Notes under the pieces: generated by a model | Seen by the model: only the letters and a program-made list of their open reading frames with translations | Database searches by the model: none | What the model was told of the DNA's origin: nothing | In this document: one piece after another, positions 1-45,147 of the stretch | Layout: every line of letters begins with the position of its first letter | How positions within the stretch are numbered: position 1 is the stretch's first letter | From: a virus | Reading direction: 5' to 3' (one strand) | Length of the DNA: 45,147 nucleotides | Virus record (IMG/VR): IMGVR_UViG_3300041935_000006 | Coordinates: 1-45,147 of that record | Made by a program: the position numbers and the translations under genes

Positions 1-127
1 TTGATGATTCAGCACGCACAACCCCCCGCGCGCGCTGTTAGTGAGAGCTCTTCACGTCTGCATCGTCGTCGTCGTCGTCACTATCGTCGTCGTCGTCACC
101 CGGGCCGACCGGGTTCGGGTCGAACAG
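1..127. repeat. Terminal direct repeat, left copy (identical to 45021..45147)
   Basis: Read directly: bases 1-127 (ttgatgattcagcacgcaca...ggttcgggtcgaacag) recur base for base at 45021-45147. The unique sequence is therefore 45020 bp and the window closes on itself. The junction lies inside coding sequence. Confidence 0.95.
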
Positions 128-460
128 CCCGGCCTGCTTTTCGCTCGGCTCCATCGGCCGCGCGGTCACGAGCTCGTTCGTGTCGCCGCGAATGGTGAGC
201 ACCCGACGCGCGGTGTAGTCGCGCTTCTCGTACACGGGCACCTCACGCAACTCGATGCCGGTGCGCACCTCCTCGGCCAGATCTCCGATCACGCGAGAGC
301 TCGCCTTGAGGTCCTTGGAGATCCGCTGCGCCGTGAGCGAGCGCTCGAGCAAGAGACGTTGATTGTTGAGCACCTCGCGCGAGAGCTCGCTCGACTTGAG
401 GGCGCGCTCGGCGTCGGAGAGCTTGCACGGCAACTTTTTCGTGACGGGTGCACCGGACAT
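38..460 (-). CDS. Hypothetical coiled-coil protein with poly-Asp C-terminal tail
   Basis: ATG at 460 follows GAAAGG. Third-position G+C is high. The tail DDDDDSDDDDDD is encoded by (GTC)n runs at 64-97. On the closed circle its stop lies 18 nt upstream of the helicase start. Confidence 0.6.
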   Translation of the reverse strand: MSGAPVTKKLPCKLSDAERALKSSELSREVLNNQRLLLERSLTAQRISKDLKASSRVIGDLAEEVRTGIELREVPVYEKRDYTARRVLTIRGDTNELVTARPMEPSEKQAGLFDPNPVGPGDDDDDSDDDDDDADVKSSH

Positions 461-7386: not shown

Positions 7387-7948
7387 GCCCGGCGTGCTCG
7401 AGGAACATCGCCGCGCACTCGGGATCGGAGAGGAACGGGCCGAACACGCGGCGAAACTTCTCGCCCAGATACTTGGCTTTGAACTCGGGCACGACGGCGC
7501 ACTCGGCCTCGAAAGCGTAGTCGTACCCTTGCTCGATCACGATCTCGCACATCGAGGCGTACACGCTCACGAGCGCGGCGAACGCCTGCCACTCGCCGTG
7601 CGGCATCTTGAGGCCGACGTGATAGATCCGGGTCTGCACCGCGCGCATTTCGGCGATCTCTGAGAGCATCTCGGCGACGCGCTGCGCCGGCAACGGGGGC
7701 TCGCGAGGCGTTGCGCGGGTGCGCATGGGGCGGCCGAAGGTGCGACTCGGGTTGCGGCTGATCGCCCTACCCTCGTCGGGTGTCACCTCGCCGAGCTCGT
7801 GCAGGCGAGAGGCGAGCTCGGGCTCGGCGAATGCAGGGCACCGGCAGAAGGCGCCGGGCACGTCTCGAGCGAACACGCACGTATCAGGGAAGTGAAGGTG
7901 TCGCGTGTGCCCGCACGCGGCGCACGTGTCTTGCGGATCATGTGTCAT
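7373..7948 (-). CDS. Zinc-ribbon-motif protein (191 aa)
   Basis: ATG 7948 forms an ATGA overlap with the upstream stop. N-terminal motif CAACGHTRHLH...CRCPAF. The C-terminal domain has no recognisable motif. Confidence 0.6.
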   Translation of the reverse strand: MTHDPQDTCAACGHTRHLHFPDTCVFARDVPGAFCRCPAFAEPELASRLHELGEVTPDEGRAISRNPSRTFGRPMRTRATPREPPLPAQRVAEMLSEIAEMRAVQTRIYHVGLKMPHGEWQAFAALVSVYASMCEIVIEQGYDYAFEAECAVVPEFKAKYLGEKFRRVFGPFLSDPECAAMFLEHAGLKGR

Positions 7949-8301
7949 GGTCGAGGGCCTTTCGGTTCCGGGGGGGGCGGCACGAAACAGCCGCACATGA
8001 AACGGGGCCGGTCGTGCTTAGTGCACACTCCGCAAAAGCTGTGGCCGAAATCGCCCCCGTGCAGGCACGACGCACGGTCGAGGTCATCGAGCTCGGGCTC
8101 GACGCCGAACCGCGCGCGGTACTCGTCGGCCGTCACTTGCCGAGCTTCTGTCGGATTCTGCCGGAGCTCGTCACGGATCCCGTGCAGCTCGCTCACGACG
8201 CGATCGAGTGAGTCGGCCGCGCTCGCGTGCGGTGCGAGGGTGCCGGCGACGTACGCCGCGACGAGGGCGAGAGCGAGTGCGGTTCGCTTGAGCAAGGTCA
8301 C
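7945..8301 (-). CDS. Secreted Cys-rich protein (signal peptide)
   Basis: GTG 8301 forms a GTGA overlap. The N-terminus (M)TLLKRTALALALVAAYVAGTLAPHASA-ADS looks like a cleavable signal peptide. The C-terminus has 5 Cys (CLHGGDFGHSFCGVCTKHDRPRFMCGC). Confidence 0.55.
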   Translation of the reverse strand: MTLLKRTALALALVAAYVAGTLAPHASAADSLDRVVSELHGIRDELRQNPTEARQVTADEYRARFGVEPELDDLDRASCLHGGDFGHSFCGVCTKHDRPRFMCGCFVPPPPEPKGPRP

Positions 8302-9626: not shown

Positions 9627-9675
9627 TGTGAACATGTAGTCAAGTGCACATGTTCACGTGTACACATGTCACCGC
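9627..9675. repeat. ACATGT-core repeat array A (three 16-bp units), candidate centromere/operator
   Basis: GTGAACATGTAGTCAA / GTGCACATGTTCACGT / GTACACATGTCACCGC. ACATGT cores sit at 9632, 9648 and 9664. GTGAACATGT (9628-9637) and ACATGTTCAC (9648-9657) are inverted. The array ends 20 nt before the parA ATG. Confidence 0.8.
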
Positions 9676-9694
9676 GTCGTGTAAGCCTGCGCGC

Positions 9695-10378
9695 ATGGCT
9701 GTTCGGATCTGTTTCGTCGGCGGCAAAGGGGGCCTCGGCAAGTCGACCCTCGCGATTTCGTGCGGGGTCGAGTGGCACCGTCGAGGTCGCCGCGTGCTCC
9801 TCGTCGACGTCGACGACGAGCAACTGTCGGCCGAGGAGTGGCACGACGACGCGCTCGAGCTCGAGCTCGACGCACCCCTCGTCGTGAGCATGGGTAACGA
9901 GGTGCGCACTCAGCTCGAGCCGGCCTCGGCCGCGTTCGAGATCGTGATCGTCGACACGGCCGGCCGCAACGGTCGGCGCTCGGCACACGTCATGGGACAG
10001 TGCGACCTTGCCGTGCTCCCGTGCGGGCCGAACCGGATCGAGCTGCGCCGACTCCCGAAAACGGTTGCGCAAGTGCGCGACGTGCAGGCGGTGCGGCCCA
10101 AGCTCGACGCCGCGATCCTCGTGACGCGCAAGCAACCAAACACGGTGATCGGGAGGCAGGCCCGGCGAGCGATTGAGGAATGCGACTTCCCGATCCTCGA
10201 CGTCGAGCTGTTCTATCGCATCACGTACGGCGAGGCGATCGCGGCCGGGCTCGGGCCGACCACGTACGACCCATCGAGTGACGCCGCACGCGAGGTCGGC
10301 GCACTCGTTGACGAGCTCGAGCGCCGGCTCGAGCTGCACACCACAACCAAACCAAAGAGGAAGCATGCCACCCGCTAA
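9695..10378 (+). CDS. parA: ParA-family partition ATPase (small, type Ib-like)
   Basis: Deviant Walker A CFVGGKGGLGKST, Walker A' LLVDVD and Walker B-like IVIVDTAG. 227 aa with no N-terminal HTH extension. Confidence 0.85.
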   Translation: MAVRICFVGGKGGLGKSTLAISCGVEWHRRGRRVLLVDVDDEQLSAEEWHDDALELELDAPLVVSMGNEVRTQLEPASAAFEIVIVDTAGRNGRRSAHVMGQCDLAVLPCGPNRIELRRLPKTVAQVRDVQAVRPKLDAAILVTRKQPNTVIGRQARRAIEECDFPILDVELFYRITYGEAIAAGLGPTTYDPSSDAAREVGALVDELERRLELHTTTKPKRKHATR

Positions 10379-11400: not shown

Positions 11401-11675
11401 ACCGCGCGCAGCGCCGAGCCGGCAAGATCCCGCACTCGTTCCGGGTGCGCACCGGGATCCACTACATGACCAACGGCACCTTCGTCGCGTTCGCGCGCAT
11501 CGATCGCGAGGACGGCTCGACGCAATGGTGGGAGTCGACGCCGTACACCGACGAGGCCGAGGCCGAGCGGCACCGCGACGAGCTCTCGACCGGCATCCGA
11601 GCGATCCTCGCAAAGCAGCAAACGAACCTCGCCGGACTGCGCGTGCACCCGGTGACGAAAGGCGGTGACGCGTGA
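11397..11675 (+). CDS. Hypothetical protein (92 aa)
   Basis: GTG 11397 forms a GTGA overlap and follows AAGGGAGGG. Confidence 0.5.
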   Translation: MNRAQRRAGKIPHSFRVRTGIHYMTNGTFVAFARIDREDGSTQWWESTPYTDEAEAERHRDELSTGIRAILAKQQTNLAGLRVHPVTKGGDA

Positions 11676-11719
11676 ACATGACGACAAGTGAACATGACGA
11701 CAAGTCAACACGTAACCAG
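11672..11719. repeat. ACATGT-family repeat array B (16-bp units x3)
   Basis: GTGAACATGACGACAA occurs twice exactly (11672-11687 and 11688-11703), followed by GTCAACACGTAACCAG. Cores ACATGA/ACAAGT/ACATGA/ACAAGT/ACACGT fall every 8 bp from 11676. Confidence 0.8.
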
Positions 11720-15328: not shown

Positions 15329-15603
15329 AGCCACGCAAGAAGCACCCCAACACCGTGACGATCTACGGCCTCGCGCAGCTCGCGCTCGACACGTTCGGAG
15401 CGCTCACCGCGGCCGAGGTGCGTGCCCTGATCGCCGACGATCCCGAGGGCCTCGCGCCTCACGAGCGGTACGACCTCACCCTCTCGCGCGTCACGGCCGC
15501 GCTGCGCTCGATGGTGCTCGACCGCTCGGCCCTCTCGGTCACCGAGGACGGGATCGCGCGCTACAGGCTGCGATCGGCGTCACGTGTACATGTGAACATG
15601 TAG
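15325..15603 (+). CDS. Winged-helix-like small protein (92 aa)
   Basis: GTG 15325 forms a GTGA overlap and follows GGGAGG. Segment LTAAEVRALI...LTLSRVTAALRSMVLDRSALSVTEDGIARYRL. The last six codons (RVHVNM) are encoded by repeat array C. Confidence 0.55.
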   Translation: MKPRKKHPNTVTIYGLAQLALDTFGALTAAEVRALIADDPEGLAPHERYDLTLSRVTAALRSMVLDRSALSVTEDGIARYRLRSASRVHVNM

Positions 15604-15628
15604 ACATGTGAACATGTGAACATGTTCA
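15585..15628. repeat. ACATGT-core repeat array C (five contiguous 8-bp units)
   Basis: ACATGTGA ACATGTAG ACATGTGA ACATGTGA ACATGTTC with cores at 15588, 15596, 15604, 15612 and 15620. It ends in the perfect 12-bp palindrome TGAACATGTTCA (15617-15628). It contains the stop codons of both convergent genes. Confidence 0.85.
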
Positions 15629-16294
15629 TACGATGCCGACGGCCATGCCGTGTGCGTGGATCTTGCGCAGTAGATCGAGGCCCGGGTCGGGCTTGACCGG
15701 CGAGAAGTGCAAGTGTCCGGCCGGCCCTCGGAACGTTGCCGCGATGTGTGCCGGCAACACGGTCGGGAACACGTCGCCGTTGAGGATCGGCACGCGCATC
15801 GGGAGCGAGTAGGCCGAACAGAGCGCCGCGTTGAGCGCGATCACGCTCGCGATCTGCGCCGGGAAAAACTCGCCGTACTCGATCAGCCGACCATGGATCC
15901 GCTCGGTGCGCCGGGTACGGGTGAAACCCTTGTCGGGTGCCTTGCCGTGCCCGCGGTTGATGATCTCGATCCCGACGCCGTACGAGTTGCCGCCCCCGTC
16001 GGCGCAGTGCGCGCACCTCGCGTCGGCGTCGGCGCACTGATAGATCTCGCCGAGCTGATCGACGATGAAGTGCACCGAGAGAGCCTCGGGCTTGCCCGTG
16101 GTCGCGCTCTTGTGATCACGCATGAACTCGAACGCGCGATCGGCCGAGTTCTCGGCGGCCGTCCAATGATTGATGATCCATCGAGTCTCGTGCCGCATGC
16201 GCGTCAAGAAGTGCATGCCGGTCGACGTCCAGGGCCGCACCGGTGCGAGGCACCTGTACGACTGACCGCGCACGATGATCTCGCCGACGCTCAC
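15626..16294 (-). CDS. Endolysin, N-acetylmuramoyl-L-alanine amidase (Amidase_2/PGRP type)
   Basis: Motifs INHWTA, SVHFIVDQLGEIYQ and AHCADGGGNSYGVGIEIIN, as in T7-lysozyme-type amidases. GTGA overlap at 16294. Confidence 0.85.
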   Translation of the reverse strand: MSVGEIIVRGQSYRCLAPVRPWTSTGMHFLTRMRHETRWIINHWTAAENSADRAFEFMRDHKSATTGKPEALSVHFIVDQLGEIYQCADADARCAHCADGGGNSYGVGIEIINRGHGKAPDKGFTRTRRTERIHGRLIEYGEFFPAQIASVIALNAALCSAYSLPMRVPILNGDVFPTVLPAHIAATFRGPAGHLHFSPVKPDPGLDLLRKIHAHGMAVGIV

Positions 16295-36949: not shown

Positions 36950-37177
36950 CTAGCGAGTGCGTGCAGACTCTTGACGTTTGACGTTTGCAGACTGATCCCA
37001 CGTCGCCGCCGCGATCCCGACGTGCCTCTCGAGCATTGCGCGCGCTCTTTTGCTCGGTTTCCACGTGCCCGAGCTCCAATGCGACACGGCCCCTTGCGAT
37101 ACGTGCGCGCGCAACGCGACCTCGCGCGCGCGGATACGTTGCAACACGCACAGTAAGAGTCGGCGGCCCTCGGTCAC
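36950..37177 (-). CDS. Small XRE-type HTH protein wedged between terminase and portal
   Basis: GTG 37177 forms a GTGA overlap with the terminase stop. HTH segment VALRAHVSQGAVSHWSSGTWKPS. Confidence 0.6.
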   Translation of the reverse strand: MTEGRRLLLCVLQRIRAREVALRAHVSQGAVSHWSSGTWKPSKRARAMLERHVGIAAATWDQSANVKRQESARTR

Positions 37178-38853
37178 CGCTTTTCCCAGATCGCCGCACC
37201 GGCGTACGGGTCGAACGGATCGCGCGCGTTGCGGGTCTGATAGTCAGACTGCACGACGCTATCGGTTGAGGTGCTCTCGCGTAGTGAGAGCGGCTCCCAT
37301 GCTGACAGTGCGAGCGCGTCGAGCCGATCGGGTGAGCGGCCGAGGATCTTGCGCAGCGTCTCTTTCGCCGTGACCTTGAGTTTGCCGTCGGCGCGTTGAT
37401 GCCACTCGGGCGCGTGCAGCTCTTTCGCAAGTTTGGTGTCCTCGGGAATCGCACCCCCGGCGTCGAACCAGGCCGAGAGCGAGGCGGCGAGAGCGTCGCG
37501 CATCAAGTGGTAGATCTCGGGTTGCCGCAAGCTCTTGTCGCTCGAGCTGATCCCGACGACCTCGAACGAGCCCTCGTTGTCGTCGGCGTAGTTGCGCAGT
37601 GCGGTGTACACCTTCGAGCCGATCGAGCCGCCGCGGTCGACGACGACGACGGGTGTCTCGCGCGGTGTCTTGAGGCGCGCGATCAGCTGCACCACTTCGA
37701 GCAAGTGCCCGGCCGCGTCGAGCCCGCGACGCACGACGAGCTCGAGCAACTTGAGCCCGCGGCGAGGCGCAAACACGATGTCATCGCCCGAGCCCTTCTC
37801 ACCCGCGGGATCCACGCCGATGTACAAGCGGCCCGACGCCGGTGCCTCGCTCCATCGCTCCTCGGCTTGCGCGATGGTGTGCAGCGAGAAGATCTTGCCG
37901 GCCTCGTGCTCGGCAAACTCGCCGAGGACACGCACCTTGTACAGGGCCGACTTGACCCCCCACTCCTCGGCCTTTTCCTCGACCCACTCGCGCGTCGCGA
38001 GGCCCGGGATCAAGCGCTTGCCGCTCACTACGTTCGGCGTCGACGCGCTCGAGACCGTCAGGCAGAAGTAGAAGCGGGCCTTGCTATTGAACGCGTCGTA
38101 AAACTCGCCGTCGTTCTTTGTGGGGTTGCCGAACAGCGCGACGCGCGCCGAGCCAGCACGGTTGCCCTCGATCGCCTCGTAGATCTCGCGCGCGACGCCG
38201 CTCGCCTCGTCGACGATGTACAGAACGTTTTCGCCGCTGATACCCGCGACCGCCTCGGCCTGTTTCGCGGTGAACCCGACGATCTCGCGAAACGACTGAT
38301 CGTCTGACTTGAGGCCGGTGCGTGCGAGCTCGCCGAGGTCGCCGTCGATTAGCGACGAGTGAGGGCACGGCCGCGTGATGCGCGCGTTCGGGTTGCGGAT
38401 CAGCTCGGCCTTGCACTCGATGCACCGACCAGAGCGCGCGTGCATCATGCGCAGCTCGCGCCACAAGATCTCGTCGACCTGCCTCGACGTCGTGCTCGTC
38501 ATGACGACGCGGGCCGCGTCGAAGCTGCAATAAAACCAGAGAGCGAGGAGCGCGGCCGAGGCCGACTTGCCGATCTTGTGCCCGGATTTCACGGCGACGC
38601 GCATGTGGTCGCGTACACCCTCGAGAATCGCGATCTGTGCCGACCACGGGTCGACGCCTGCGATCTCGCGAGCGAACCGCACCGGCTCCTCGCGGTACAT
38701 CGGGCTCGGGAACGTGACGCCGAACGACGCGTGCAGCGCGGGAAAGAACGACGCCGCGAAGTCGCCGGCATACGTGAGCGGCCCCCCGACAAACTTGAGG
38801 GGCCGGCCGGGCCTACGCTTCGCTATCTCGCTCGAGGCGGTGCTCGTCGCCAT
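37174..38853 (-). CDS. terL: Terminase large subunit
   Basis: Walker A VKSGHKIGKSA and Walker B VLYIVDEAS, with a C-terminal RNase-H-like nuclease region (IGVDPAG...). 559 aa. Confidence 0.9.
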   Translation of the reverse strand: MATSTASSEIAKRRPGRPLKFVGGPLTYAGDFAASFFPALHASFGVTFPSPMYREEPVRFAREIAGVDPWSAQIAILEGVRDHMRVAVKSGHKIGKSASAALLALWFYCSFDAARVVMTSTTSRQVDEILWRELRMMHARSGRCIECKAELIRNPNARITRPCPHSSLIDGDLGELARTGLKSDDQSFREIVGFTAKQAEAVAGISGENVLYIVDEASGVAREIYEAIEGNRAGSARVALFGNPTKNDGEFYDAFNSKARFYFCLTVSSASTPNVVSGKRLIPGLATREWVEEKAEEWGVKSALYKVRVLGEFAEHEAGKIFSLHTIAQAEERWSEAPASGRLYIGVDPAGEKGSGDDIVFAPRRGLKLLELVVRRGLDAAGHLLEVVQLIARLKTPRETPVVVVDRGGSIGSKVYTALRNYADDNEGSFEVVGISSSDKSLRQPEIYHLMRDALAASLSAWFDAGGAIPEDTKLAKELHAPEWHQRADGKLKVTAKETLRKILGRSPDRLDALALSAWEPLSLRESTSTDSVVQSDYQTRNARDPFDPYAGAAIWEKR

Positions 38854-39500: not shown

Positions 39501-39540
39501 TGACATGTTCACATGTGTACACGTGCACATGTACACGTTA
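39501..39540. repeat. ACATGT-core repeat array D (8-bp units)
   Basis: ACATGTTC ACATGTGT ACACGTGC ACATGTAC with cores at 39503, 39511, 39519 (ACACGT) and 39527. It lies between the stop of 39538..40260 and the start of 39219..39479. Confidence 0.8.
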
Positions 39541-40260
39541 CTCGGCGTCGCCGTCCTCGCCGAGGATTCGTTGCACCGCTGCCTCGACGTCGCGCGCGGC
39601 GGCCGGGTGCGGCAAGAGGGCCTCGATAATCGCTTTCTTGAGGCGTTGCCACTTCGGGTGATCGCGGATCGTGCGGTCCTCGAGCATCTCGCGGTCGCGC
39701 TCGAGCCTCGTTTTTTGCGTGAGGGCTCGCGAAAAGGCGTCGGTGAGCTGCGCGCGCTCGCGGGGGGTGAGCTTGCCGTTTTTCAGCTGCGTTCGCAGGA
39801 GCTTGATCAGGCGTTCGTAGTCGCGCAGCGCCGAGGCCGTGCCCTCGAGCTCCTCGTCGTCGGTGTCGTCGTCGAGCTCGAGCTCGGGCTCGGGTTCCTC
39901 GGCCGCACCCCATGCCGAGAACGGGATGCCAAAGTGGCTCGCGAGCGCGCGGCGGTACCGATCGTCGGGCACATACAGGCCGTCTCGCCACTGCGCGATC
40001 GATTGCTTGCTCGCGCCGACCGCCTTGCCGATCTGAGAGAGCGAGCCGGGCACGTCGAGCAACATGCGTTGCCCCTCGGAACGGATCGGTTTCGCCGGTG
40101 CGCGCAGCGGTTCGGGTGCCGGCGCCGGCTCGTCGTCGAGCTCCTCGTCGTCGAGCTCGTCGGCCTCGAGGTCGGGCTCGGCGCTTGACGCTCTTGACGT
40201 CGACGCGCGCGCGCTTGACACACGCGCTTTCGGGCTCGATTTCGTTGCGGTTTTACTCAT
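39538..40260 (-). CDS. HTH-domain protein with acidic flanks and coiled-coil C-terminus (regulator or small terminase candidate)
   Basis: HTH segment LSQIGKAVGASKQSIAQWRDG. An AT-rich promoter-like stretch lies upstream (40275-40300). Confidence 0.6.
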   Translation of the reverse strand: MSKTATKSSPKARVSSARASTSRASSAEPDLEADELDDEELDDEPAPAPEPLRAPAKPIRSEGQRMLLDVPGSLSQIGKAVGASKQSIAQWRDGLYVPDDRYRRALASHFGIPFSAWGAAEEPEPELELDDDTDDEELEGTASALRDYERLIKLLRTQLKNGKLTPRERAQLTDAFSRALTQKTRLERDREMLEDRTIRDHPKWQRLKKAIIEALLPHPAAARDVEAAVQRILGEDGDAE

Positions 40261-40353
40261 GGTTGACGGTCAAGGTGCATTTTACAGATATTTACTCCCG
40301 CACCACGCACACGAGGCCCCCCGGCCTTGGCCCCCCAATAGACTGTCATGCCC

Positions 40354-40974
40354 CTACCTCAATGATTGCGCATGCTTGGCCCAACATTCGGGGTGGTAGT
40401 TGGCACCCTCGCCGAGGCCGGGCTCGTCACACACGCGGCACCGCTTCCGACGTTTCGCACGCGCAGCCATGATCGATGCCTGGTACTCCTCGGAGGCCCA
40501 TGCCTTTCGCATCGCACACGATCGACACAGAACTGTCGCCTCGCACGGTGAGCGCTTCGGACTGAGCACGGCAGCGCACTCCGCGCACGACCGCGCTTTG
40601 TGCGCCTGCACGAGCGACTCGCTTGCGATTGGCTCGCGCGGTTTCACCGCAACGCTATTGAGGTTCGCTGCAACGTATCCGTGCAGTGCGGCGAGCTCGG
40701 CGAGAGACGCATTGCTCTTGAGCGTGTTTGCTCGACTCGAGATCACGGCGACGTTCCCGCGCACATACCCGAGCTCGGGAACGATGCGATCGAGCGTCGC
40801 CGAGTTGTCAGAGAACGGCCCGGCCTCGAGTTTGAGTGCAACGCCGAGGACCGGGCAACGCTCGGGCACTACCACGTCGGTTGATTGTAGGTCGAATGGC
40901 ACCCCCCGTGCGCGCGCACGCTTACGCGCTAGCGACACGAGACGTTGAGCGATCAACTCGCGATAACGGTTCAT
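40354..40974 (-). CDS. HNH / endonuclease VII-type nuclease with C-terminal zinc ribbons
   Basis: CPVLGVAL......SATLDRIVPELGYVRGNVAVISSRANTLKSN matches the endonuclease-VII-like HNH pattern. The C-terminus carries CAEC...CRSC and CRVC...HPEC. Confidence 0.75.
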   Translation of the reverse strand: MNRYRELIAQRLVSLARKRARARGVPFDLQSTDVVVPERCPVLGVALKLEAGPFSDNSATLDRIVPELGYVRGNVAVISSRANTLKSNASLAELAALHGYVAANLNSVAVKPREPIASESLVQAHKARSCAECAAVLSPKRSPCEATVLCRSCAMRKAWASEEYQASIMAARAKRRKRCRVCDEPGLGEGANYHPECWAKHAQSLR

Positions 40975-41002
40975 GTAGGGGGTGGCCGTCACGACACGCG
41001 GG

Positions 41003-41521
41003 CTACTCCTTTCTCTCGTCGGCGGTCGAGCTCTCGAAGTGGTCGCCGCCTCCCGTCGACGGGTGCTCGCTCGTGCCGGTGCCACCGATCACCCGGGCAT
41101 GATCGTCACCGAGCTCGTTCTCGGCCTCGGGTACGGCATCCGGCTCGGCGAGCGTCGTGCCCTCGGCATCGGTCTGCCCCTCGGTGAGCGTGCCGGGCAC
41201 GGCCTCACCGGGCTTGACCTCGTTCTCGGGTGCGGGCTCGGGCCGATACGCACGTGCCGCCGCTTCCTCTTGTGCACGCTCGGCCTTGAGCGTTGCGGTC
41301 GTGCGCGCGACGAGCTCTTGCCACACGGCCTCGACTTGCTCTTTCTCGGCGTCGCGCGCGAATGACGTCTTGAACTCGCGTTGCGGCGCCTCGCGCAAGC
41401 GAATGATCCCGGCGACGCCGTTCGGGCCGTCGTGATAGGCGATCGAGTACGTGCCCTCTCCCAAGGCTTCGTTGAGCGCGTCGAGGATCGCTTGCGACGG
41501 CTCGTGAGCGATGCCGATCAC
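41003..41521 (-). CDS. Hypothetical acidic protein (172 aa)
   Basis: The start overlaps the upstream stop. The C-terminal half is acidic and low in complexity. Confidence 0.5.
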   Translation of the reverse strand: MIGIAHEPSQAILDALNEALGEGTYSIAYHDGPNGVAGIIRLREAPQREFKTSFARDAEKEQVEAVWQELVARTTATLKAERAQEEAAARAYRPEPAPENEVKPGEAVPGTLTEGQTDAEGTTLAEPDAVPEAENELGDDHARVIGGTGTSEHPSTGGGDHFESSTADERKE

Positions 41522-42235: not shown

Positions 42236-42435
42236 TCGCGCACCGGGGGCGGTGTCAACGCGTCGTGCGCGTATTGGATGCGAGCCTTGAGCGTCGCGGC
42301 TCGCTCGTCGACGGCGGCGAGGCCGATCGGGAGCTCGAGCGCATCGAGCAGGATGCGCAGCTCCTCGCGCGTGAAGGTGAGCATCGCCTTATGCGTGTGC
42401 ATCGTCTGCACTGACTTGCCGATCTTGTCGCTCAC
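42232..42435 (-). CDS. Hypothetical protein (67 aa)
   Basis: GTG 42435 forms a GTGA overlap with the RuvC-like stop. Confidence 0.5.
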   Translation of the reverse strand: MSDKIGKSVQTMHTHKAMLTFTREELRILLDALELPIGLAAVDERAATLKARIQYAHDALTPPPVRE

Positions 42436-43058
42436 TTGCCGCCCCCGAACAGATCGCCCTGTTTGACCGCTGCGCGTTTGGCGCGGCCCTCGATGCGAGT
42501 CTTCATGCGCTCGGCGTCGTACCGTGCGAGCCCGTCGATCGACGCGAACACGGTGAGCGCAACGCCCTCGGCATGGTTGTCGTCGATCGGCTCCTCGCCG
42601 AGGTAAGCGCGAGCCCAGTCGACGGCCGCCTTCTTGACGTCGCCTCGAGTCGTGCCGTGCACGCGTGATCGCCATGTCGAGGGCTGCACCTCGAGCGCGT
42701 GCGAGGGATGCAGGCCGGCGACGTAAAGCATCCCGAGCCAGATGCCGTAATTCTTACCCATGCCGATCAGCGATGCGTTCGAGCGCTCGGGTGCAGCTTG
42801 CCGCGGGCCTTTGCGTTGCGTGGTGTGGTCCGCGTTCGTGAGACGCGTCGCCGGCATGTGGTCATGCTGCTCGAACATCACGAACAGCGCCGAGGCATCG
42901 CCGCACACGTACTCGAGCGCGAGCTGCACGACGGCAACGCGGTCGGCGACGTTCTTTGCGAGGCCGTGCCGAACCACCCGGCCGCGCTCGGGAGCGATGC
43001 CCCACCCGGTTTTGTTGCCCTGATCGAGGCCGAGCACGACGCGTCGGAGCTCGGTCAC
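42432..43058 (-). CDS. RuvC-like Holliday junction resolvase (RNase H fold)
   Basis: VLGLDQGNKTGWG (first catalytic Asp), FEQHD and PIDDNHAEGVAL (C-terminal acidic pair). Confidence 0.75.
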   Translation of the reverse strand: MTELRRVVLGLDQGNKTGWGIAPERGRVVRHGLAKNVADRVAVVQLALEYVCGDASALFVMFEQHDHMPATRLTNADHTTQRKGPRQAAPERSNASLIGMGKNYGIWLGMLYVAGLHPSHALEVQPSTWRSRVHGTTRGDVKKAAVDWARAYLGEEPIDDNHAEGVALTVFASIDGLARYDAERMKTRIEGRAKRAAVKQGDLFGGGK

Positions 43059-43073
43059 GACCGCACCCCCCCT

Positions 43074-43087
43074 GCAACGCGCGTTGC
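43074..43087. promoter_or_regulatory. 14-bp perfect palindrome GCAACGCGCGTTGC upstream of the resolvase gene
   Basis: Read directly. It lies 16 nt upstream of ATG 43058. Its core AACGCGCGTT is one base shorter than the AACGC(G/C)GCGTT core of the three promoter/operator sites. Confidence 0.3.
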
Positions 43088-43306
43088 GGCGGGTGGTGGT
43101 TCCCGTTGCACCCGCTCGAGCCCCTCGCGGACCCCCCCAAAAACGCCGATCGAGGTCCCTCGCGCTCCCGGCCCGCGGCGGCCCCTAGACGGCGCTCGAG
43201 CTGCGTGCGGCCGATCGCTCCCGAACCAGGCCCGACCGCCGCTCTCTACCCCCCGCCTCGTGCGCTGGGCATTTGTTCGACTCTGCTTTCGGCACGGTAG
43301 CCCCTC

Positions 43307-43429
43307 GGTCCCTACCCTACGCAGCACAGGTCCAGAGGTCCCTCTCCCTAAAGGAGAGAGGGACCTCAGGGACCTCTGTGCGGGTCCAGGTCCGGGACCT
43401 CGATGGACCTCGATGGACCTCGCGGACCT
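43307..43429. repeat. GGACCT/AGGTCC iteron array with long inverted repeat (candidate replication origin)
   Basis: AGGTCC at 43328, 43336 and 43388. GGACCT at 43361, 43370, 43395, 43405, 43415 and 43424. Variants at 43307 and 43382. The last four are spaced 10, 10 and 9 bp apart. The hairpin 43335-43346/43356-43367 has 12 contiguous bp. Confidence 0.8.
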
Positions 43430-43470
43430 CGGCGAATCGCTTGCACCGGGTGACAAACAGCCATGCATCC

Positions 43471-45039
43471 TCATGACGGCACTCCCGGTTGAGCAACCCG
43501 ATAGACCCCGTCGACGCGCACGAGCACCCCCTCTTCGACGAGCTCGCGGGTGATCGAGTTGCCGTCGCGCTTGCGCATGCCGGCGCCGCGAATGATGGCG
43601 GCGAGCGTGCGGCACTCCTCACGCGCGCACGCGGCGAGGGCTCGCTCGCGCAGCTGCGTTGACTTGGCTCGCTCGCGGTCGACGTCGTCATGCTCGGGCT
43701 TCTCGATCTCGCGCCAAGAGAGCGACGAGAAGTCGAGCCGCGTGCGGATCTCGGGTTTGGCACTGCCGAGGCGGTTTTTCGCGACCTCGAGATCGACGAC
43801 GCCGACCTCGCCGGTGACCGAGCGCAACCCGATCAGCAAGTGCGCGGCGTACTCGATAGCCCGCGACTCGGCGCCGGCACCGAGCGCGCTGATATCCTGA
43901 TCGCGCTTGCCCGTGCGATACCCCGCGCGGCTCATCTCCGAAATCGCGACGACGAGCGTGCCGCGGCGGCAAATGCGCTTGATCACCCGCACCGTCGCTT
44001 CGATCTGCTCGCGGGTGGTCTCGTACTGCAACGCCTCGCGACACGGCACGGTTTGGATCGAGTCCACGAACATCACGCGCGGCCGGTCGCCTGCGCCCTC
44101 GAGCAAGAGCCGCTCGGCATCCTCGAGAAACAGCTCGTCGTCGTACGGGTCGATCACGACGATCGCGCGAGCTCGGGAGCTGCGCGCGAAGGTCTCACGT
44201 CGACCGGGGTCGACACCCTCGAGCGCCTCGCGGTCGTGCCCGTCGAGCTGACCGAGCCGCGTGACAATCGCCTCGCGCGACTCGTCGGCCGCGAGGAATG
44301 CAACCGCGCACCCGGCCCGCTCCCATCCATCGGCGAGCCATGCGCACAGATTCGTCTTACTCGCACCCGGCGCACCGAGCAGTGCGACAAAGCGGCCGAG
44401 AGGCAGACCCCCACGCGTCGCCGCGTCGAGCGCCGGCAACCCGGTCGGCAAACGCGTGCCGACGGCGCCGAGTGCGAGTGCGAGCTCAGAGAGCGTCGGG
44501 ATGCGCGCGACAGACTCGTCACGGTCGACGGCCTCAAGGGCTGCGCGCGCACCATCGAGCGCGGCGAGGTACCGCGGGAGCTCGTCACTCCCGGCCTTGC
44601 CGGCGACGAGCGCGGCGGCATCGTGCACCGCGCGTCGACGAGCGAGCCGGCGCAATCGACGCGTGTCGGTCTGATCGCTCGGCATGGTCTCGGTGACCGC
44701 GAGCAAATACTCATCGCCGCCGACGGCACCGAGCCGACCCGCGTCGTGCAGCGCGTCGTGCAACGCGGCCGTGTCGTGAGGTTTGCCCTCCGACGCGAGC
44801 TTGCACAGAACCGCGAAGATCTGGCCGTTCGAGTGCGAGTAAAAGTCGTCGGGCACGACCTTTGACGCGAGCGCGAACCCGGGCAAGAGCATCGCCGCGC
44901 ACAACACCGCGCGCTCGAGCACGAGGTCGTGCAGCTCGAGCCGATCCTCGTGCCGCAAGCTCGCCGCTCGGCCGTTGCTTGGCGTCGGTTTCACGGCCCG
45001 CACCGGCCCCCCACTCGTGTTTGATGATTCAGCACGCAC
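43471..45039 (-). CDS. DnaB-family replicative helicase with winged-helix-like C-terminal extension
   Basis: DnaB N-domain pattern ERAVLCAAMLLP...DFYSHSNGQIFAVL. Walker A LLGAPGASKT and Walker B VMFVDS. The C-terminal 70 aa (RTLAAIIRGAGMRKRDGNSITRELVEEGVLVRVDGVYRV) look like a wHTH. The GTG start at 45039 is uncertain. Confidence 0.8.
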   Translation of the reverse strand: MRAESSNTSGGPVRAVKPTPSNGRAASLRHEDRLELHDLVLERAVLCAAMLLPGFALASKVVPDDFYSHSNGQIFAVLCKLASEGKPHDTAALHDALHDAGRLGAVGGDEYLLAVTETMPSDQTDTRRLRRLARRRAVHDAAALVAGKAGSDELPRYLAALDGARAALEAVDRDESVARIPTLSELALALGAVGTRLPTGLPALDAATRGGLPLGRFVALLGAPGASKTNLCAWLADGWERAGCAVAFLAADESREAIVTRLGQLDGHDREALEGVDPGRRETFARSSRARAIVVIDPYDDELFLEDAERLLLEGAGDRPRVMFVDSIQTVPCREALQYETTREQIEATVRVIKRICRRGTLVVAISEMSRAGYRTGKRDQDISALGAGAESRAIEYAAHLLIGLRSVTGEVGVVDLEVAKNRLGSAKPEIRTRLDFSSLSWREIEKPEHDDVDRERAKSTQLRERALAACAREECRTLAAIIRGAGMRKRDGNSITRELVEEGVLVRVDGVYRVAQPGVPS

Positions 45040-45147
45040 AACCCCCCGCGCGCGCTGTTAGTGAGAGCTCTTCACGTCTGCATCGTCGTCGTCGTCGTCA
45101 CTATCGTCGTCGTCGTCACCCGGGCCGACCGGGTTCGGGTCGAACAG
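45021..45147. repeat. Terminal direct repeat, right copy (identical to 1..127)
   Basis: See the left copy. Exact 127-bp identity. Confidence 0.95.

Follow-up and report, generated by a model that had tools for sequence, protein, structure and literature searches.

The sequence analyzed here, hereafter the window, comprises the 45,147 nucleotides (nt) of the virus record IMGVR_UViG_3300041935_000006 from IMG/VR, and it carries, directly downstream of a gene for a DnaB-family replicative helicase, a dense array of short repeats (iterons) combined with a GC-rich palindrome. We propose that this element is a phage replication origin of the initiator-helicase type, a reading to which we assign a probability of roughly 0.65. 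The preliminary description of this DNA had suggested an iteron-type origin beside the helicase gene. The conserved layout of the element, its linkage to the helicase gene alone and a predicted winged-helix tail on the helicase favor an origin, whereas a classical Rep or lambda-O type origin is disfavored because the repeat units are only 8–10 bp long and the scans given below turned up neither a separate initiator nor a DnaA box or an AT-rich unwinding element.

An exact search of both strands of the whole window returned 13 copies of GGACCT. Since about 16 would be expected genome-wide, the total is ordinary, but the clustering is not: nine of the 13 copies lie within 102 bp (43328–43429), on the plus strand at 43361, 43370, 43395, 43405, 43415 and 43424 and on the minus strand at 43328, 43336 and 43388, and one more stands at 43153. 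The highest count in any 102-bp segment across 300 first-order Markov simulations was three, and AGGTCC/GGACCT is the hexamer with the highest local concentration in the genome. Together with two GGTCC variants at 43307 and 43383, the element comprises 11 iterons in 165 bp with the orientation pattern ++++--++---. It begins about 42 bp from the helicase stop codon (43471–43473) and occupies the helicase-proximal 165 bp of a 412-bp gap that shows no GC signal by codon position.

The array opens with four direct repeats, GGACCTCGAT GGACCTCGAT GGACCTCGC GGACCTCGG, spaced 10, 10 and 9 bp apart; the repeat unit is about 8–10 bp long with a conserved core of 7–8 bp. Beyond it lies an imperfect palindrome (Table 1), each arm of which holds two iterons (43361 and 43370 in one, 43328 and 43336 in the other). 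Its inner stem, CTCTCTC/GGGAGAG, closes on a loop of about 5 nt and belongs to a perfect 12-bp stem in which 43335–43346 pairs with 43356–43367. These results agree with the preliminary description on the nine perfect hexamers and two variants, on the spacing of the direct repeats, on a non-coding gap of about 410 bp and on the 42-bp distance from the helicase gene. Its inverted repeat stands with respect to the 12-bp perfect stem and needs correction in size, as the palindrome is larger (~43320–43382, 26 pairs).

The helicase was assigned to the DnaB family. Pfam matches covered the DnaB N-terminal domain (4.9e-13) and a KaiC-type ATPase (1.5e-10), the protein matched phrog_19 at 2.8e-37, and its family profile aligned over nearly the full length with the DnaB structures 2r6a, 2q6t and 6bbm and with SPP1 G40P (3bgw). 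The bacterial DnaB structures align only to profile position ~440, whereas the phage protein extends about 70 residues further. An AlphaFold2 model of the last 82 aa, built from an 18-sequence alignment, reached a predicted local distance difference test score (pLDDT) of 86.5 and showed a helix-helix-helix-beta-hairpin arrangement. The named Foldseek matches of this tail were MarR, IclR, CAP and Sso10a winged-helix proteins, with E-values of 0.004–0.05 that are weak, as one would expect of so small a domain; many of the top matches were O-methyltransferases, whose aligned part we take to be their N-terminal winged-helix-like domain. The tail is accordingly predicted to be an extra domain beyond the DnaB core with a winged-helix fold, in line with the earlier guess of a DNA-binding type of domain at the helicase C-terminus.

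This motor-plus-tail architecture appears to be widespread, as judged from protein sequences. A search of 1.84 billion representative proteins with the family profile recovered 867 clusters (50% identity) at E <= 1e-30, and about 136 of the 150 best cluster matches ran through the tail to their own C-terminus. Three N-terminal architectures occur in the family: a DnaB N-domain, no N-domain, and a long N-terminal region. One homologue with the long architecture (P0038) contains the primase zinc-finger domain PF01807.

Helicase homologues were encoded on many metagenomic contigs of 43–46 kb. Sequence past the helicase stop was available for 19 other loci: 15 relatives with helicase identities of 36–87% (L014–L023, L025–L030), two family members of the long architecture (L031, L032), and two contigs found through the repeat itself (L006, L007; see below). 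The layout stood directly after the helicase stop in 19 of 19 loci, and the element was downstream in all 17 helicase family members examined past the stop (the 15 relatives, L031 and L032). It set in 2–45 nt past the stop and opened with 2–4 direct repeats 8–11 bp apart, followed by one or two inverted copies in most loci, then a short spacer and a palindrome of ~60 nt with 2+2 copies, in which two direct copies, a GC-rich stem with a 3–6-nt loop and two inverted copies succeed one another. A further inverted copy often lay about 20–22 bp on (present in L014, L017, L019 and L023), and the orientation pattern in most relatives was ++++--++--. The gap itself is kept at 313–412 bp in the close relatives L014–L023; in L028, L030 and L031 the element takes up nearly all of a shorter gap.

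The layout is thus retained, while the repeated word switches between genomes. It is GGTCC(C) in the window, L014 and L026, GGTTCC(C) in ten genomes, and AGGTACC, GTTTCG, GGTTCG and TCGTGCC in the single loci L021, L027, L028 and L030, respectively; at each related locus the genome's own word clusters in the helicase-proximal gap only. Near-identical winged-helix tails went with the same word, both in the trio of the window, L014 and L026 and in the pair L019 and L025. Such switching fits a phage-encoded binder co-evolving with its sites rather than a host factor, and on this sequence evidence we suggest that the binder is linked to the helicase gene. Separately, we tried a recognition-helix code, in which Gly-Asn in helix 3 would go with an A on the 5' side of the GG core (window, L014, L022), and do not build on it, as the independent cases were few and L021 and L029 were exceptions.

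The palindrome is likewise conserved as a structure. A hairpin of 21–28 bp was predicted in 17 of 17 loci folded, and the parts of the stem between and outside the iterons differ in sequence across genomes with complementarity kept, compensatory changes being found in 10 of 15 consensus pairs.

Comparison of the flanking genes linked the element exclusively to the helicase gene. L028 and L030 have no protein but the helicase in common with the window, and the element is still there; in L028 it is followed by a small open reading frame (ORF), a gene for a single-stranded DNA-binding protein (SSB) and a RuvC-like gene, a gene order that places it inside a replication/recombination module and not at an early/late boundary. 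L031 and L032 served as a blind test, having been chosen as long-architecture family members without knowledge of their flanks. Both (2/2) carried an iteron cluster and a GC hairpin directly past the stop, with the word GGTTCG in L031 (12 copies in 150 bp) and ACTTCCC/GGGAAGT in L032, and in each the iteron hexamer was the most locally concentrated hexamer of the locus.

A search of IMG/VR for the pattern GGACCT-N4-GGACCT-N4-GGACCT returned unrelated contigs, two of which carry a GAGGTCCAC array directly 3' of a replication gene: a primase-helicase gene in L006 and a helicase gene in L007. In L006 (11180–11450), two opposed GGTGGACCTC sets surround an AT-rich stretch directly past the primase-helicase gene; in L007 (360–800), a direct block and a G/C hairpin follow a 433-aa helicase, as in the window. 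The winged-helix tails of these two proteins showed no similarity to the tail of the window family, so that the shared word would be a matter of coincidence or convergence. GGACCT arrays with a 10-bp period were also seen on the unrelated IMG/VR contigs L003, L004, L005, L010, L011 and L013.

From these observations we infer that the iterons are binding sites of the tail, and that this is where the helicase loads itself and replication begins. In the proposed mechanism, the C-terminal winged helix of the helicase would recognize the GAGGTCC iterons directly 3' of its own gene, with the four helically phased direct repeats as a landing pad of high affinity. In the palindrome arms, the 2+2 opposed iterons could then place two helicase assemblies in opposite directions, allowing bidirectional replication, and the DnaB N-terminal domain would bring in the host primase. 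The GC-rich palindrome may substitute for the AT-rich center of the origins of Staphylococcus aureus pathogenicity islands (SaPIs), possibly by extruding as a hairpin or cruciform, and it may also serve on a single strand of helicase-mRNA polarity. The most specific form of this proposal, in which a DnaB-family helicase of superfamily 4 (SF4) is its own origin-recognition protein and loader by means of the winged helix, and a cruciform-forming 2+2 palindrome of high GC content replaces the AT-rich unwinding element, is tentative, and we rate it at somewhat less than an even chance.

Several observations weigh against an origin of this kind. The cumulative GC skew of the closed 45,020-bp circle, a check put forward in the preliminary description, showed no inflection at 43.3 kb; its minimum lies at ~2.7 kb and its maximum at ~34.6 kb, in a skew that is weak and confounded by gene strand. 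The AT-richer stretch that had been described beside the array is unremarkable, the minimum 40-bp GC of the gap (0.575) standing at the 13th percentile genome-wide. The gap contains no AT-rich unwinding element and, at up to two mismatches, no DnaA box. Normally, a helicase of the DnaB type depends on a loader and on a pre-melted origin, and the model offers no explanation for the opening of a GC-rich palindrome. The recognition helix does not track the word: the window pairs RKRDGNS with GGTCC and L022 pairs RKRDGNM with GGTTCC, while L029, with a very different tail, also has the word GGTTCC. Finally, the mRNA-sense strand has a slight advantage in hairpin stability at 15 of 17 loci (p = 0.016, uncorrected for relatedness), with 30 G-U pairs on that strand versus 18, a bias also compatible with an RNA-level function or with single-strand use as RNA or DNA.

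This strand bias is one of the points in favor of transcription control at the end of the early (replication) operon, in which the hairpin would be a terminator, attenuator, processing site or 3' stabilizer of the mRNA and the repeats would be operators, binding a phage regulator of read-through or of a promoter for the downstream RuvC-like, HNH, terminase and structural genes. The element is placed after the last replication gene and before a long block on the same strand that runs into the packaging and structural genes, a position that would suit such a role, as would the distal iteron and conserved boxes ~95 bp upstream of the next gene. We nevertheless consider it unlikely. Neither the window nor the relatives, in their sequences as read, show a T-run past the hairpin, a terminator scan gave nothing at the palindrome (its only match was a weak 6-bp stem overlapping the helicase stop), and no sigma-70-like promoter was found in the gap. 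The motif is absent from other intergenic regions, including the divergent helix-turn-helix (HTH)/early promoter region at 1636–1941, and the element stays with the helicase even where the downstream genes differ, as in L028. Moreover, a hairpin alone needs neither a word repeated 9–12 times, nor a fixed orientation pattern, nor a phased block of four copies. A comparison with Rfam 15 produced only two chance-level matches to microRNA precursors (E = 0.21 and 0.58), far under the gathering scores.

Sites of the ParR, ParG or omega type typically consist of phased repeats with a short unit, and centromeres of type Ib are helically phased arrays of short direct and inverted repeats. The resemblance of the array to such sites, together with the ParA-like protein of the window and the RHH_5-match protein encoded next to it, could point to a plasmid-type partition centromere of type Ib. 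We hold this to be quite improbable, as the array lies ~11 kb away from parA, the GTGAACATG repeat family directly upstream of parA is a more natural target for a ribbon-helix-helix protein, and the array is tied to the helicase stop even where no other gene matches the window within ~3 kb on either side. Even less probable, in our estimate, is a packaging site (pac or cos) recognized by the small terminase, a protein that forms oligomeric rings and in that form is often found to bind short repeats in phase. The packaging genes do lie downstream on the same strand, and in L030 the gene right after the array encodes an HTH-like protein; however, packaging sites are usually within or beside the small-terminase gene, and here the array is ~3 kb and six genes from the putative one. 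Helicase adjacency is conserved where terminase distance is not, and a low-GC spot at ~40,200, by the HNH endonuclease gene and the small-terminase candidate, is a better cos candidate. Two further readings were rejected: a protelomerase target, given that the dyad center is not palindromic and the genome is circular or has a terminal direct repeat, and a rolling-circle (HUH-type) origin, given a hairpin loop without a conserved nick motif and no HUH Rep found.

Table 1. Features of the proposed origin region and of other parts of the window.
Feature	Position	Strand	Evidence or remark
Non-coding gap, helicase to next gene	43059–43470	.	412 bp
Direct block, four head-to-tail iterons	43395–43431	-	GAGGTCC x4 in helicase sense; Tandem Repeats Finder period 10, 3.8 copies
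Two inverted copies facing the direct block	43383–43393	-	GGTCC 43383–43387, AGGTCC 43388–43393
Imperfect palindrome/hairpin, ~60 nt	43320–43382	-	26 predicted pairs
Extra inverted variant copy	43307–43311	-	GGGACC in helicase sense; ~22 bp past the palindrome
Distal single iteron, GAGGTCCCTC on the + strand	43152–43161	-	~95 bp upstream of next gene
DnaB-family (SF4, RecA-fold) replicative helicase, 522 aa	43471–45039	-	Pfam, PHROGs, structure alignment
C-terminal extension of the helicase, residues ~451–522, predicted winged helix, proposed iteron binder	43474–43689	-	AlphaFold2
Conserved 140-aa protein, upstream of the helicase in most relatives	38–460	-	
ParA ATPase	9644–10378	+	phrog_164 4e-31; NCBIfam ParA_partition 2.9e-40
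Small ribbon-helix-helix protein, 118 aa	10365–10721	+	RHH_5 match; directly after the ParA gene
GTGAACATG clusters	9628–9657, 11672–11710, 15584–15629, 39503–39536		first cluster directly upstream of parA
Large terminase	37174–38853		phrog_2 2.3e-31
Putative small-terminase gene	39538–40260		low-GC spot between this and the next gene listed
Endonuclease-VII/HNH-like gene	40354–41085		

The remainder of the gap also contains conserved sequence. In helicase sense, a conserved TCTAGGGGCC box comes before the distal iteron and GTTTTTGGGGGGG after it, and a distal copy of the genome's own motif occurs at the equivalent spot in most relatives. The region 43140–43200, with TCTAGGGGCC, the distal iteron and GTTTTTGGGGGGG, is common to the window, L014, L018, L020, L022 and L023, and from its sequence may be a promoter or control region of the downstream operon, or an auxiliary origin element. 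A TGCAAG(C/G) box was seen at both ends of the gap (43432–43470 and ~43085–43115) in many relatives. Directly past the helicase stop it takes the form TTGTCAC-N5-TGCAAGC; near the start of the next gene, TGCAAC/TGCAAG is followed by the iteron-like GGGAACC (43098–43104), where the window has the GGAACC word of its relatives and not its own GGACC. The TGCAAG boxes matched neither sigma-70 nor sigma-54 promoters, and a sigma-54-like reading of the TGTCAC-N-TGCAAGC box, made by eye, was rejected for its wrong GG-to-GC spacing and missing GG. In L023, a second set of five GGTTCC copies at ~12-bp spacing (7908–7957) lies at the far gap end and overlaps the start of the next called ORF.

Because nucleotides 1–127 and 45021–45147 of the window are identical, we regard the sequence as a closed circle or terminally redundant unit of 45,020 bp, with a GC content of 66%; the gene that ends at 45060 and the one at 38–460 (minus strand) are the same. 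By its gene content, the window encodes a tailed phage. Besides the terminase and partition genes in Table 1, profile scans identified a Baseplate_J protein, an endolysin and HNH endonucleases, the DNA-processing functions of a RecE-like exonuclease, a DnaQ-like exonuclease and an N6/N4 DNA methyltransferase, and a Cro/CI-type HTH protein. The ParA gene and the RHH_5 gene resemble a type Ib partition cassette. Since no integrase was found among the ORFs scanned in the window, a phage-plasmid lifestyle is plausible from the sequence.

Two further features of the genome were recorded alongside these genes. GTGAACATG / ACATGTKCAC repeats with a period of ~8 bp occur in 23 copies (up to one mismatch) against 6.5 expected, and one of their cluster spots is a low-GC site at 15.5 kb; judged by sequence and position, these arrays are likely dispersed sites of the ParA/ribbon-helix-helix partition system, or of a repressor. 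The stretch ~40180–40300 is among the three lowest-GC spots of the genome and is a candidate cos/packaging region.

Of the proteins encoded next to the helicase, the conserved 140-aa protein was modeled (pLDDT 80) as a long helix and a three-stranded sheet with an acidic, disordered poly-Asp/Glu tail ending in His; it gave no family match, no fold match and no recognizable DNA-binding motif. Its role could be that of a partner of the helicase or of an accessory factor resembling SSB, and, considered on its model as an alternative iteron binder or binding partner, it is still a conceivable one. On the other side of the gap, the RuvC-like label that the preliminary description had given to the ORF at 42432–43058 (minus strand) could not be confirmed: Pfam, PHROGs, NCBIfam and PDB sequences yielded no match, even with a 10-member family profile. 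In this family D12, E63, E164 and D175 are invariant and D159 nearly so, residues that are compatible with an RNase-H-like nuclease and prove nothing.

Neither near nor distant DNA searches of INPHARED phages returned a match to the region, and the helicase had only partial matches, all below 34% identity, among phage and plasmid proteins; these searches provided no cultured relative or annotated origin for comparison. A pattern-based scan of IMG/VR and the GTDB genome collection likewise gave no helicase relative. The sole hint at a host is the helicase homologue P0026, labelled as coming from a Myxococcaceae metagenome-assembled genome.

Should the most specific form of the proposal be correct, the loading of DnaB-type helicases at an origin could dispense with DnaA, DnaC, DciA or lambda-P-like partners. 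The DnaB-type helicase is the textbook case of a motor that needs a separate initiator and loader, and self-loading initiator-helicases with 3' origins have so far been described for AAA+ proteins (superfamilies SF3 and SF6) of satellites, staphylococcal cassette chromosome (SCC) elements, P4 and archaeal plasmids. The element and its gene would then make up a compact replicon of two parts (one gene plus ~170 bp) from uncultured, high-GC phages or phage-plasmids, and would provide a test case for SF4 ring loading at a GC-rich origin without an unwinding element. The natural specificity variants of the element (GGTCC, GGTTCC, GGTACC, GGTTCG, GTTTCG, TCGTGCC and ACTTCCC) would lend themselves to work on initiator-origin co-evolution and incompatibility. 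In the literature searched in full text, with incomplete coverage, we found no DnaB-family helicase that combines a C-terminal winged helix with downstream iterons, which is absence of evidence only.

Classical iteron origins, such as those of Rep_3/RepA plasmids and of lambda O, have iterons of 17–22 bp, a dedicated initiator, an AT-rich unwinding element and often DnaA boxes, and the lambda origin sits inside the O gene. The window shares with them the helically phased initiator words and the combination of direct and inverted repeats known from pSC101 or F, but its unit measures 8–10 bp against their 17–22 bp. Pfam, PHROGs and NCBIfam scans of ~40 window ORFs detected no Rep_3, RepA or lambda O-like initiator, an absence that is unproven, as several ORFs were without any match. 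The core origin of simian virus 40 (SV40) offers a different parallel: four GAGGC pentamers form a 2+2 palindrome that directs two opposed hexamers, with auxiliary direct repeats adjacent. A 2+2 palindrome of a short word with direct repeats alongside is also what the window contains. Unlike the window, SV40 is a eukaryotic virus with an SF3 helicase, its origin-binding domain is N-terminal and of another fold, and an AT tract and an early palindrome flank the core.

SV40 large T antigen is itself named as an analogue in a study of the Cch2 helicase of the SCC element SCCmec, which specifically binds direct repeats at a putative origin downstream of its own gene, beside hairpin-forming inverted repeats that are dispensable for binding (PMC7581432). 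The window is similar in having direct-repeat iterons just past the helicase gene and potential hairpin-forming inverted repeats beside them, and dissimilar in its motor and repeat number, as Cch2 is a 3'-5' helicase related to minichromosome maintenance (MCM) and D5 proteins with only three 5-nt iterons. In the archaeal plasmid pRN1, the origin is a stem-loop 3' of a primase-helicase-winged-helix gene, conserved in structure and variable in sequence (PMC4234260). There too, as in the window, a stem-loop kept in structure and not in sequence lies 3' of a replication protein that ends in a winged helix (ORF904); the differences are the lack of iterons, a stem-loop of ~100 nt and an archaeo-eukaryotic primase fused to an SF3 helicase. 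For P4, the work attributed to Ziegelin and Lanka and to Yeo et al. (2002) reportedly describes an origin of short repeated words, direct and inverted, with ori and crr both required. Like the helicase proposed here, P4 alpha unites in one polypeptide a helicase and an origin binder, the latter by way of a C-terminal winged helix, but it joins a DnaG-type primase to an SF3 helicase and uses two separated cis regions (ori and crr). The binding of alpha to the origin through its C-terminal winged helix has been documented, and origin-binding domains occur in roughly two out of three SF3 replicative helicases (PMC4889955).

The Rep-ori module of SaPIs/PICIs is a further parallel in layout. According to PMC9371898 (citing Ubeda et al. 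2007, 2012), SaPI Rep is self-loading, and its C-terminal winged helix binds 6–12 penta- or hexanucleotide iterons directly downstream of rep; the same source describes an origin with at least two iterons per side in opposite orientation. The window shares the C-terminal winged helix on the helicase, as predicted, the short iterons directly past the helicase ORF (11 in 165 bp), at least two opposed iterons per side (2+2 around the hairpin), the lack of an evident separate initiator and a specificity word that varies among related elements, and the layout of the unrelated contig L006 is textbook SaPI-like. The two systems differ in scale, a 15-kb satellite against a tailed phage of ~45 kb with ParA. 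They differ also in the motor, which is a 3'-5' AAA+ helicase of SF3 or SF6 (MCM-like) in SaPI Rep and an SF4 DnaB/RecA-fold helicase with a DnaB N-terminal domain in the window, and in the center of the origin, which is AT-rich in SaPIs and in the window is a GC-rich, hairpin-forming palindrome in a gap without an AT-rich part.

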